The notes beneath the pieces are model-generated. The model worked only from the letters and a program-made list of their open reading frames with translations. It was not told the origin of the DNA and made no database searches. 64,000 nt of DNA from Rariglobus sp. (GTDB taxonomy: Bacteria > Verrucomicrobiota > Verrucomicrobiia > Opitutales > Opitutaceae): positions 1,089 through 65,088 of the forward strand of contig JAQSWS010000032.1 in NCBI GenBank assembly GCA_029266495.1. Direction: 5' to 3'. Below, piece by piece: positions 20,434-63,689 of this stretch. A program made the translations under genes and the position numbers. How positions within the stretch are numbered: the stretch's first letter is position 1; each line of letters begins with the position of its first letter.

Positions 20434-21293
20434 CCACCTGGCTCACCCCCTTCCAATACGATTACATGTTCACCGCGATGTGGACATGCACGCTCATCGG
20501 CGGGGTCTGCGGCCTGCTCTCCGGCTTCATCACGCTCAAGGGCTGGTCGCTCATGGGTGATGCGCTCTCCCACGCCATCGTTCCCGGTGTCGCCCTTGCG
20601 TATCTTGCCGGCGTGCCCTTTGCCCTGGGGGCCTTCACCAGCGGCATCCTCGCGGCCGGCGCCATGGCCTTCGTCAAGATGAAGACCCCGGTCCGCGAAG
20701 ACGCCGTGATCGGCATCGTGTTCACCTCGTTCTTCGCCCTCGGCCTCCTGCTCATTTCGCTCTACCCCAGTCGTGTCGACCTCAAGTCGATCATCTTCGG
20801 CAACATCCTCGGCATCGATCAGGCCGATGTAAGACAAGTCGTGATTGTCGCGGCCATTTGCCTGCTCGTCATCGTCCTGAAATGGCGTGACCTGCTCCTC
20901 TTCTGCTTTGATCCCAACCAGGCCCGTGCCCTCGGGTTGCGCGCCGGTTTTCTCCACGTTCTGCTGCTGCTGCTGCTCTCCGCGACCGCGGTTGCCGCAT
21001 TACAGGCGGTTGGCGCGATCCTCGTGATCGCCGTGCTCGTCACACCCGGCGCCACCGCCTACCTGCTGACCGACCGCTTTGGTGTGATGCTGCTCCTTGG
21101 CTCCGCCATTGGCGCGGTCACCTCCTTCATCGGCGCCTACGCCAGCTTCTTCCTCAATGGAGAAACCGGTGGCTGCATCGTGACCCTGCAAACGCTGGTT
21201 TTTCTCACCGCCCTGGTTTTCGCACCCAAGCATGGCTTGCTCGCCGCCCGCCGCGCCCGTGCGCGTGCCTGCCCGGTGGATATTTCGTCATGA
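20430..21293 (+). CDS. Metal ABC transporter permease (SitC/YfeC-like)
   Basis: [25 protein letters not shown]. Confidence 0.93.
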
Positions 21294-22123
21294 TCGACAC
21301 GCTCCTCGAGCCCTTCCAGTTCGACTTCATGCGACAAGCCTTCGCGGTCGGCGCACTCGTGGCGACGGTCGCCGCGGTGTTGTCCTGCTTCCTCGTGCTG
21401 CGCGGCTGGTCGCTGATGGGTGACGCCATTTCACATGCCGTGCTGCCCGGTATCGTCCTCGCCTACATCGCCGGCATCCCGCTCTCGATCGGCGCGTTTG
21501 GCAGCGGGCTTTTCTGCGCCGTCGCCACCGGATGGATCAAAACCAACAGCCGCATCAAGGAGGACACCGTCATGGGCGTGGTCTTCACCGGCATGTTTGC
21601 CATCGGCCTCGTGCTCTTTTCGAAGACGCCGAGCGACCTGCACCTCGACCATATTCTCTTTGGCAACATCCTCGGCATCGAACCCGGCCAGCTCTGGGAA
21701 ACCGGCATCTTGTCGGCCCTGGTCCTCGGCTCGATCCTCGTGTTGCGGCGCGACCTCCTGCTGGTCTGTTTTGATCCGACGCATGCCCACGTCCTGGGCC
21801 GCCCCGTGCGTGTCCTCACCTACGTTCTGCTCATTCTCCTTTCGCTCGCAATCGTGGCCTCGATGAAAGCTGTGGGGCTCATCCTGGTGATCGCCATGTT
21901 GATCACTCCGGGAGCGACCGCCCTGCTGCTGGTCAAACGTTTCGACCGCATGCTCCTGACCGCGGTCACCATCGCCGTCGGCTCATCGGCCACGGGCATC
22001 TACATCAGCTTTTTTCGCGGCGCCTCCCCGGCCGCCTGTGTCGTCCTGGTCCAGGCCCTGGTCTTCGTCGCCACCCTCTGCTTCCGCGGCCTTCGCCAAA
22101 CCGGCTTGTCACTTAATAAGTGA
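21290..22123 (+). CDS. Metal ABC transporter permease (SitD/YfeD-like)
   Basis: [32 protein letters not shown]; the stop codon lies inside a palindrome. Confidence 0.93.
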   Translation: MIDTLLEPFQFDFMRQAFAVGALVATVAAVLSCFLVLRGWSLMGDAISHAVLPGIVLAYIAGIPLSIGAFGSGLFCAVATGWIKTNSRIKEDTVMGVVFTGMFAIGLVLFSKTPSDLHLDHILFGNILGIEPGQLWETGILSALVLGSILVLRRDLLLVCFDPTHAHVLGRPVRVLTYVLLILLSLAIVASMKAVGLILVIAMLITPGATALLLVKRFDRMLLTAVTIAVGSSATGIYISFFRGASPAACVVLVQALVFVATLCFRGLRQTGLSLNK

Positions 22124-22131
22124 CAAACCGG
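22101..22131. repeat. Palindromic element TTGTCACTTAATAAGTGACAA (copy 1)
   Basis: Perfect 21-bp palindrome around a central A, with CCGG flanks; 27/28 identical to 63275-63302. Confidence 0.85.
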
Positions 22132-22188
22132 TTGGGGTATTACTTCCCCCTTGCGAGCCCGCCCGCGGGCTGAACACACTCCGCGCCG

Positions 22189-62549: not shown

Positions 62550-63689
62550 CTAGGCAGTCCCCACCTCGGTCGCCACCGCGCCGAACGCGGCGGCGAGCGC
62601 CTGCCAGTCGTCAGCCGTGGTCTCCCAGCCCGAACTCACACGCACCACGCGTTTCGCCTCTCCGGCGTCGTAGCCCAGCGCGGCAAGCACATGCGAAGGA
62701 CCTGCCTTCCCTGTCGCGCACGCCGAACCGGTCGACACCTGAAACCCGCGCTTATCGAGCCGAGTCACCCAACGGGTGTTGTCACCAAAGGGCATGACCA
62801 GGGACACGGTGTTCCACAACCGGTCCGCTCCCGCCCCGATCACTCGCACGCCCGGCACCAGGGAACCCACGGTTCTCTCAAAATTCTCACGCCAACGCAG
62901 GCGCTCCGCCTCCAGGAAAACTTTTTTTTGCTCTGCGTCCGCCAGCGTCGCCCCCATTGCCGCGATCGCCGGAAAATCCTCCGTGCCCCCGCGATGACCG
63001 CGCTCCTGCCCGCCGCCAAGTTGACCGCGCAGACCTTCGGATTGCGGAGCAAGCTTAAGTAACCCCACCCCTTTCGGTCCGCCAAACTTGTGCGCCGCCG
63101 CGATGACGAAGCCATCCCCGCCGATCCCGCCCGCCGGCAGCTTCCCGAGCCACTGCGATCCATCGCAGAGATAAGCCACCCCCGCCTCCCGGCACATCGC
63201 CGCGATTTCTGCCCACGGCTGCAAAACGCCCGTCTCATTGTTCGCCGCCATCACCACAACCGCCGACACCCGATCCGGTTTGTCACTTAATAAGTGACAA
63301 ACTTTCAGGGATTCCAGCTCAACGGTCCCGGCTGGGTCGACCTTCAGCCAACGCACCCGGTCACCAAAAAAATGTTTCGCCGGTTCCAGCACGCACGGAT
63401 GCTCGGTCGGGTTCACCGCAATCAGTGCATCCGCCGGCAATGTTTTTGCCCACCAGGCGAACACCAGGTTGGCCGCCTCGGTCGCACCCGAGGTAAACAC
63501 ATATTGCTCCGCCGAACCGCCGAGCAGGATCGCGAATTTCTCCCGGGCCGCATCAAGGCGGATCTTCACCTGTGCCGCCGTCCGATACGGACTCGACGGG
63601 TTCTGCCACGCCTCCTCCTGGGCTCGCAACCAGGTATCGCGGGCGACCGCCGCAAGCGGCGTGGTGGCGTTGTGGTCAAAGTAAGGCAT
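62550..63689 (-). CDS. Cysteine desulfurase (IscS/NifS-like)
   Basis: YFDHNATTP, MAANNETG, AHKFGGPKG (PLP Lys), STGSAC (catalytic Cys). Confidence 0.9.
   Translation of the reverse strand: MPYFDHNATTPLAAVARDTWLRAQEEAWQNPSSPYRTAAQVKIRLDAAREKFAILLGGSAEQYVFTSGATEAANLVFAWWAKTLPADALIAVNPTEHPCVLEPAKHFFGDRVRWLKVDPAGTVELESLKVCHLLSDKPDRVSAVVVMAANNETGVLQPWAEIAAMCREAGVAYLCDGSQWLGKLPAGGIGGDGFVIAAAHKFGGPKGVGLLKLAPQSEGLRGQLGGGQERGHRGGTEDFPAIAAMGATLADAEQKKVFLEAERLRWRENFERTVGSLVPGVRVIGAGADRLWNTVSLVMPFGDNTRWVTRLDKRGFQVSTGSACATGKAGPSHVLAALGYDAGEAKRVVRVSSGWETTADDWQALAAAFGAVATEVGTA
63275..63302. repeat. Palindromic element TTGTCACTTAATAAGTGACAA (copy 2, intragenic)
   Basis: GTTTGTCACTTA-A-TAAGTGACAAAC is a perfect 25-bp palindrome (63278-63302) encoding VCHLLSDK in the desulfurase. 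Confidence 0.85.

Follow-up and report, generated by a model that had tools for sequence, protein, structure and literature searches.

A dispersed palindrome family in a genus of Opitutaceae and its candidate cognate helix-turn-helix proteins

RESULTS

The 64-kb stretch of Rariglobus sp. DNA analyzed here (contig JAQSWS010000032.1; 64,000 nucleotides, referred to as the window) contains a palindrome that is read in frame within a cysteine desulfurase gene. This palindrome belongs to a family of about 100 copies dispersed over the genome that holds the window (G000; 4.89 Mb, 62.7% GC, 172 contigs), where the family occurs in at least four sequence variants, termed dialects A, B, C, and D. The palindromes bracket genes for small helix-turn-helix (HTH) proteins, dialect by dialect. 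Sequence comparison makes it probable that they are the binding sites of a dimer of the cognate HTH protein. The copies dispersed through the genus would then be the recognition sites of an orphan HTH family of the Cro/XRE type, with one dialect per protein clade.

The palindrome in the cysteine desulfurase gene and its second copy in the window

The host gene (62550..63689, minus strand) encodes a class-V aminotransferase/cysteine desulfurase of 379 aa, which matches PF00266 and whose homologues are named cysteine desulfurase. The organism names of homologues place the genome within Opitutaceae, close to Rariglobus. The palindrome, a dialect-A copy, is located at 63278..63302. Its arms of 12 nt each (63278-63289 and 63291-63302) are 100% complementary around a single central base, and its 21-bp core (63280-63300) reads TTGTCAC-TTAATAA-GTGACAA. 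On the minus strand it is translated as VCHLLSDK, directly before RVSAVVVMAANNETG. The 28-mers at 63275-63302 and 22101-22128 differ by one base (27/28). A preliminary description of this DNA, which had claimed a perfect 25-bp palindrome, its in-frame translation within a cysteine desulfurase, and its near identity to the second element in the window, was accurate in each of these points. In the AlphaFold2 model of the desulfurase, residues 130-137, which correspond to the palindrome, fall in the end of a helix (125-133) and in the loop 134-140, which is followed by a strand (141-147). The confidence of the model dips at residues 131-140 (predicted local distance difference test, pLDDT, 71). 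A single outer arm is left at this copy (63269..63279). It is of the CCGATCCGGT type and fits the family consensus CCrAnCCnnT, which was derived from a flank profile of 82 copies. On the coding strand this arm comes after the core, where it codes for the last part of K137 and for P-D-R; its counterpart on the other side is missing. The gene for NAD(P)H-hydrate repair (YjeF/Nnr) contains a copy (G000:C77:10920) with the same outer-arm sequence.

The second copy in the window is a long form (22096..22136). Its core (22106-22126) consists of the same 21 bp as that of the desulfurase copy, and outer arms are present in addition. The resulting arms of 20 nt each are 90% complementary, and the corresponding RNA hairpin has a folding energy of -24.4 kcal/mol (z = -5.5). 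This copy overlaps the end of a metal ABC-transporter permease gene (SitD/ZnuB-like; 21290..22123, plus strand), the last residues of which (LSLNK) and the TGA stop codon come from the palindrome.

A genome-wide family in several dialects

Two matches in the window compare with 0.11 expected. Across G000, the arm pattern was matched 88 times, against 1 match of the reversed control, and the full dialect-A 21-mer was matched 64 times at no more than 2 mismatches (46 perfect), against 0 matches of a non-palindromic control pattern with one arm reversed. These differences exclude chance. The preliminary description had considered that only the two window copies might exist; the genome-wide count gave about 100. 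Dialect A, represented by the desulfurase core, accounts for 64 copies in G000, dialect B (GTGTCAC-CTAWTAG-GTGACAC) for 13-14, dialect C (AGTAACC-TATTG-GGTTACT) for 19, and dialect D (TGTTCG-TAWTA-CGAACA) for 4.

The core of the family is AT-rich and 17-25 bp long, and GC-rich complementary arms often extend it to a hairpin of ~45 nt. In many copies these outer arms follow the consensus given above and pair with the opposite flank. Among 162 distinct copies, arm complementarity exceeded that of a partner-shuffle control out to ~9 nt beyond the core, and arm lengths were bimodal (10-12 nt or 17-23 nt). Nine pairs of copies are arranged as doublets 45-76 bp apart; eight of the nine are single-dialect, and eight of nine are inverted when the central base is taken as the criterion. 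The asymmetric centre was identical in 19/19 dialect-C copies, which fits copying and not independent evolution to a symmetric optimum.

The distribution of palindromes and HTH proteins was compared over 41 genomes. The palindrome was found in 20 of the 23 species of one genus, and neither the palindrome nor the HTH protein was detected in any of the 17 other genera sampled. A scan of the GTDB collection (one genome per species) showed that exact cores are almost confined to Opitutaceae/Opitutales. Two kinds of tandem arrangement were also observed. Dialect-B arrays with a 90-bp period occur in G006 (C2:108233-108523, four copies; C3:127349-127550, three copies), which suggests a larger repeated unit enclosing the palindrome. 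At G000:C37:37835-38000, a long-form palindrome adjoins a short tandem repeat of GGTCATT/GGGTCATT units, which the open reading frame (ORF) caller rendered as a repetitive HWSLVIG peptide.

Small HTH proteins are bracketed by the palindrome of their own dialect

The HTH genes were found by inspecting the sequence between nearby palindrome pairs. The clade-A paralogue of G000 (132 aa; C47:8193-8591) has a dialect-A palindrome upstream of its start and another just past its stop codon, and the clade-B paralogue (117 aa; C121:12925-13278) has dialect-B palindromes at the same two positions. A third paralogue, on contig C110, is bracketed by dialect D, and a fourth, on contig C34, by dialect-C doublets. 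The brackets on C47, C121, and C110 are inverted pairs, and on C34 an inverted doublet stands on each flank. Bracketing by the own dialect was observed for all four G000 paralogues and for most homologues in other species. When 30 homologous loci of 16 genomes are compared, the palindrome that brackets the gene tracks the protein clade, also for the further dialects E, F, and G, and the mapping of dialects to HTH clades is one-to-one. On the maximum-likelihood tree of the HTH proteins, the dialect labels required 6 changes, which is the minimum; none of 200 shuffles equalled this number, although kinship inflates the test. In 21 of the 30 loci, a perfect palindrome is located ~4-60 bp upstream of the predicted HTH start (~110-150 bp in two loci).

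The correspondence extends to the putative recognition helix, which reads PRQRVHDY in clade A, PRQRVDDF in clade B, PKQRLSDY in clade C, and HRARVGEY in clade D. In the clade-A orthologue of G018, this helix carries an H to Q replacement, and in the same genome GTAAC replaces GTCAC, on the flanks of the gene as well as in the genome at large. At least 14 dialect-A copies were counted in 10 genomes, and the clade-A orthologue occurs in precisely these. The clade-B gene was found in 6 of the 7 genomes with at least 7 dialect-B copies, the seventh of which is 77% complete. The clade-A and clade-D genes are syntenic, whereas the clade-C cassette, comprising the gene and its flanking palindromes, has a genomic context that differs between species. 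The suggestion in the preliminary description that the palindrome could be a regulator binding site is strengthened by these results, as the palindrome brackets a small HTH gene dialect by dialect.

The HTH proteins are small (about 117-135 aa) orphans. A collection of 5.8 billion sequences contained 108 clusters of the family, every one labelled hypothetical and almost none with a Pfam domain, and an NCBIfam search of the HTH protein gave no match. A profile search of solved structures returned the XRE protein 3op9 as a weak match (E 1.4). Three motifs are invariant in the family alignment: GATLRPGxDTPLW, KANLARVLxVPRQR, and MPDAER. In the AlphaFold2 model, a long N-terminal helix is followed by a flexible linker of basic character and then by a four-helix HTH domain with pLDDT of about 90. 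The top Foldseek neighbours of the model are all of the Cro/C1-XRE type (HigA2, HipB, CylR2, 434 Cro, P22 c2, and C.AhdI).

The palindrome lengthens proteins at orthologous sites

The desulfurase loop was compared in an alignment of 120 homologues and at 30 genomic loci. In seven species of the genus, the desulfurase lacks the element and has a short linker of the K-AVVG-RV type. In the clade of G000, the linker is ten residues long, 6 more than in these species. This bears on an objection that the preliminary description had raised against its own reading, namely that orthologues without the palindrome might carry a peptide of the same length. Orthologues that show no element at all are 6 residues shorter, and the same-length peptides in some desulfurase orthologues are recognizable other dialects or decayed copies. 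The site is occupied by different but again symmetric variants, namely dialect B in G021 and G002, a hybrid in G005, and dialect C in G006; G018 has the GTAAC form on one arm, and G019 and G010 have two copies of the element in the loop. G018 appears to be the cultured Rariglobus hedericola, since its loop peptide equals that of the desulfurase homologue P0041 from that species. The orthologous copies of G013 and G001, first read as decayed remnants, match dialect E, which brackets another HTH clade. Third-codon identity of the desulfurase gene is 0.52 to G016 and 0.61 to G017 (near saturation), and the core is identical at 21/21 positions. As judged from these alignments, the desulfurase copy is an old in-frame insertion, through which a surface connection between a helix and a strand is about 6 residues longer. 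On the same comparison, the constraint on this copy acts on the DNA and not on the peptide, which is probably a neutral passenger.

G023, G016, and G017 have kept the permease palindrome at the orthologous position, and in G018 it is half decayed. An empty site for this copy was not recovered in the five further genomes looked at because the upstream gene is non-adjacent there. In G016 (contigs C342/C326) and G017 (C103/C22), the assembly ends exactly at the permease-terminating palindrome; the repeat evidently breaks up metagenome-assembled genomes (MAGs).

Similar observations were made for the Nnr (YjeF) linker and for two sites in allophanate hydrolase, where a gain in length was accompanied by long palindromes of differing dialect at one and the same site. 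Presence and absence of the element at these sites are scattered among species. Overall, the length gains at intragenic sites relative to orthologues are 6-9 codons. At the Nnr site, species without the core still show CCGGAnCGGG at the junction. This is suggestive of an outer arm that was a pre-existing host target, with the other arm as its inverted copy; the sites in the desulfurase and in allophanate hydrolase are ambiguous in this respect. A contig of a genome assigned to another family of the order (G029:C287:204-1880) encodes an allophanate hydrolase 79% identical to that of G000, which is as close as within the genus, and lacks the element at both sites. The similarity could come from horizontal transfer or from a mis-binned contig.

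The comparisons at orthologous sites also bear on whether the palindromes arose in place, as purely regulatory or chromosome-organizing sites of the host (of the matS, Noc, or SlmA type, or those of a regulon), with no copy-and-insert step. Such sites would be compatible with a copy number between tens and about 100, with a symmetry that runs through to the central base, and with copies that persist for long at orthologous positions, as well as with the vertical inheritance of the syntenic clade-A and clade-D HTH genes. Sites arising in place would not, however, lengthen genes by whole codons relative to their orthologues, nor is it clear why unrelated loci should share the outer-arm consensus, the dialect-specific proximal bases, and the asymmetric dialect-C centre. 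The existence of inverted doublets points in the same direction, as does the presence in a single genome of as many as four orthogonal protein-site pairs. Moreover, the copies are spread over large contigs and are not gathered in one domain. We therefore consider an origin in place improbable and favour copying into new sites of palindromes that the HTH proteins would recognize. Clustering near ori or ter, which the preliminary description had proposed to check, is likewise not supported, since copies are distributed along the Mb-sized contigs of the relatives G018 and G006 (ori/ter positions were not mapped).

Most copies lie downstream of genes, and intragenic copies use the single open frame

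A home-made gene model was used to place 100 sites relative to genes. Of these sites, 57 are intergenic, mostly downstream of genes, compared with 12% of random positions. Another 13 overlap the 3' end of a gene and supply its stop codon (2% of random positions), and 29 lie inside coding sequence (82% of random positions). Intergenic spacers of the convergent and tandem types show a 5- to 7-fold enrichment of sites, whose median distance from the stop codon is 56 bp.

Such an arrangement would be expected if the palindromes acted mainly in RNA, as terminators or mRNA-stabilizing hairpins downstream of genes, with the intragenic copies being accidental. The strong folding of the long forms as RNA (-24 to -36 kcal/mol, z = -5.5 to -8.5) also agrees with a role of this kind. 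We give it only a slim chance, because the symmetry is kept at centre-adjacent bases that are unable to pair in a hairpin, half of the copies consist of the core only, and a T run 3' of the hairpin is absent. A search of Rfam returned only chance miRNA-like hairpin matches, far under threshold. The dialect-specific protein partner points instead to recognition of double-stranded DNA, to which a role in RNA may be added.

Every intragenic copy is read in one stop-free frame, which in dialect A gives peptides of the CHL[IL]SDK type; a single open frame is used because two of the three frames per strand hold stops. Intragenic copies fall mostly in linkers and loops of genuine housekeeping genes. 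Their hosts encode an HPPK-PabB fusion, a DinG-like helicase, RsmE, Nnr, OGG, and an M32 peptidase, and further an allophanate hydrolase, a histidine kinase, Fmt, Ogt, and an epimerase. An iron regulon, a possibility prompted by the two copies in the window, was ruled out because the host genes are very diverse. In G016 (C65; L052:4290-4400), an inverted doublet is read in frame (PVCHLLSDK...PICHLISDK) within the gene for a 449-aa membrane protein, so entire doublets can be coding passengers too. The idea of a lineage-specific, coding-compatible mobile palindrome, put forward from the window alone, agrees with the restriction of the family to one of the sampled genera and with the tolerance of insertion in the sole open frame.

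DISCUSSION

How recognition and dispersal may work

In the explanation that we propose, the recognition helix of each HTH protein would read the variable half-sites of its dialect, and the basic RRPRKG..LRPG linker possibly reads the constant TAWTA centre. The palindrome upstream of the HTH gene would serve as an autoregulatory operator. Copies may be dispersed by a copy-and-insert process that resembles REPINs (hairpin-forming doublets made up of repetitive extragenic palindromes, REPs) or transposable elements of the miniature inverted-repeat kind (MITEs) in its outcome. Once inserted, they would persist for long at their sites, and the dialect of the resident protein would be that to which the core is held or rewritten. 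Template switching during replication may keep up the symmetry of the arms and produce the flips of the central base. Transcriptional roadblocks, termination, protection of the palindrome, and chromosome structuring are candidate effects of binding.

Several observations weigh against this explanation. The Pfam match of the HTH protein to YdaS_toxin (Cro-like; E 0.007-0.04) is under the curated cut-off, and the Foldseek E values of 0.5-3 for the Cro/XRE neighbours are individually weak. The co-occurrence of dialects and HTH clades was counted over related genomes and is not statistically independent. G005 retains 11 palindromes, and the HTH gene was not detected there; the desulfurase of G006 holds a perfect dialect-C copy, and only the clade-B gene was detected in that genome. 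With regard to dispersal, no target-site duplication above chance was detected at 2-5 bp, and the analysis found neither a transposase for the palindromes nor a fresh insertion that could be set against a clean empty site. The HTH protein has no recognizable catalytic domain and cannot alone account for insertion. Finally, the figures on genomic context rest on a crude codon-usage ORF/gene model.

Relation to REP elements and other known systems

The palindromes could also be ordinary REPs or MITEs moved by a transposase encoded elsewhere, either a Y1 transposase of the REP-associated tyrosine transposase (RAYT) type or that of another insertion sequence (IS); the HTH genes would then be passengers or would have look-alike operators. 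REPs and REPINs agree with the family in size, hairpin, inverted doublets, downstream position, and the occasional occurrence of intragenic copies (PMC3733652, PMC3116915), and G000 does encode one Y1_Tnp protein. This single PF01797 gene (310 aa; G000:C1:2823-3755) is IS200/RAYT-like and has the HUH and Y motifs. No palindrome of the family is located near it, however, and its orthologues of about 315-320 aa are present in most species of the genus, equally in palindrome-free genomes such as G003 and G007. A link to this RAYT-like gene was ruled out on these grounds, the gene being unflanked by the repeat and its phyletic pattern unrelated. The GTAG/CGTC tags of the REP superfamilies are absent as well. 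In addition, at least five dialects match at least five HTH clades one to one, down to the species-specific change in G018, which would not be expected by coincidence. Movement by a transposase encoded elsewhere is accordingly a minor contender beside the reading of the palindromes as sites of their HTH proteins.

The likeness to the REP/REPIN-RAYT system (Bertels and Rainey 2011, PMC3116915; PMC3733652) is nevertheless considerable. That system also consists of short palindromes (20-40 bp, imperfect) in tens to hundreds of copies, as singles and inverted doublets and mostly downstream of genes, and of several families per genome, each with its own single-copy, vertically inherited, repeat-flanked gene. 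For the relative Opitutus terrae, REPs inside ORFs or supplying stop codons have been reported (Di Nocera et al. 2013, PMC3733652). The present family, with ~100 palindromes of 21-47 bp, 57% of them intergenic and 13% on gene ends, and with nine doublets, eight of them inverted, agrees with REPs in size, location, and doublet structure. The differences lie elsewhere. The 82-copy profile shows a CCrAnCCnnT flank in place of the GTAG/CGTC tag, and no flanked, co-occurring Y1 RAYT gene was found, the sole PF01797 gene being unlinked. The family is REPIN-like in its working but not a member, since both the tag and the flanked gene are missing. Its candidate partner is a predicted Cro/XRE-type HTH protein of ~120 aa without an HUH/Y1 catalytic domain, its core is AT-rich and perfectly symmetric to one central base, and its intragenic share (29%) is far higher. 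MITEs, which have terminal inverted repeats with a target-site duplication and derive from a parent IS, differ in that no flanking direct repeats above chance and no parent IS were identified here, and the only repeat-bounded gene is that of the HTH protein.

Small HTH proteins with a palindrome 12-40 bp upstream of their own start are also typical of autoregulated Cro/C1 (XRE) repressors and of the controller (C) proteins of restriction-modification systems. Unlike in those systems, the operator-like site is present here in about 100 copies, coding regions included, and a second copy follows the stop codon. The long N-terminal helix and the basic linker are further differences, and a phage, toxin-antitoxin, or restriction-modification context is lacking. 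Quasipalindrome template-switch mutagenesis is an established process that makes the two arms of a short inverted repeat alike and turns around the spacer between them (PMC7202029, PMC8604942). It would explain the symmetry of diverging copies at the same locus and the A/T flips of the central base, but it leaves the dispersal and the agreement of copies within a genome unexplained.

Rickettsia palindromic elements, said to have been described by Ogata et al. in 2000, are reportedly 100-150 bp long and reside in frame in housekeeping genes of Rickettsia, where they give rise to extra surface peptides. To our knowledge, neither a transposase nor a cognate DNA-binding protein is known for them. 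The comparison with these elements drawn in the preliminary description holds for in-frame insertion and long retention but not for membership, as the size (21-47 bp here), the lineage, and the sequence differ. They are mentioned in PMC3733652 and PMC10969869. A literature search by exact sequence and peptide found no paper on the present palindrome, and keyword searches returned only general REP/MITE papers.

It is conceivable, although we regard it as doubtful, that the family represents a second, independent REPIN-like replicator whose partner is a non-catalytic Cro/XRE-type protein. At least 5-7 orthogonal protein-site pairs would have co-diversified in one genus, and rewriting would bring resident copies, even those in essential genes, into line with the dialect of the protein that is kept. 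Its spread would perhaps build the outer arm as an inverted copy of neighbouring host sequence.

Implications

The family is of practical relevance to annotation and dN/dS analyses, and also to the breaks seen in assemblies of Opitutaceae MAGs. Peptides of 7-10 residues have been added repeatedly to loops and linkers of housekeeping enzymes, with a constraint within coding sequence that acts at the DNA level. The natural series of related HTH proteins with shifted specificity, such as the H to Q replacement that goes with GTCAC to GTAAC, would be useful for work on DNA-recognition codes and for their reuse. If the HTH proteins do bind the palindromes, dispersed REP-like repeats could be linked to partner genes besides those of RAYT transposases, which would widen the question of whether repeat populations are parasites, symbionts, or tools of their hosts.

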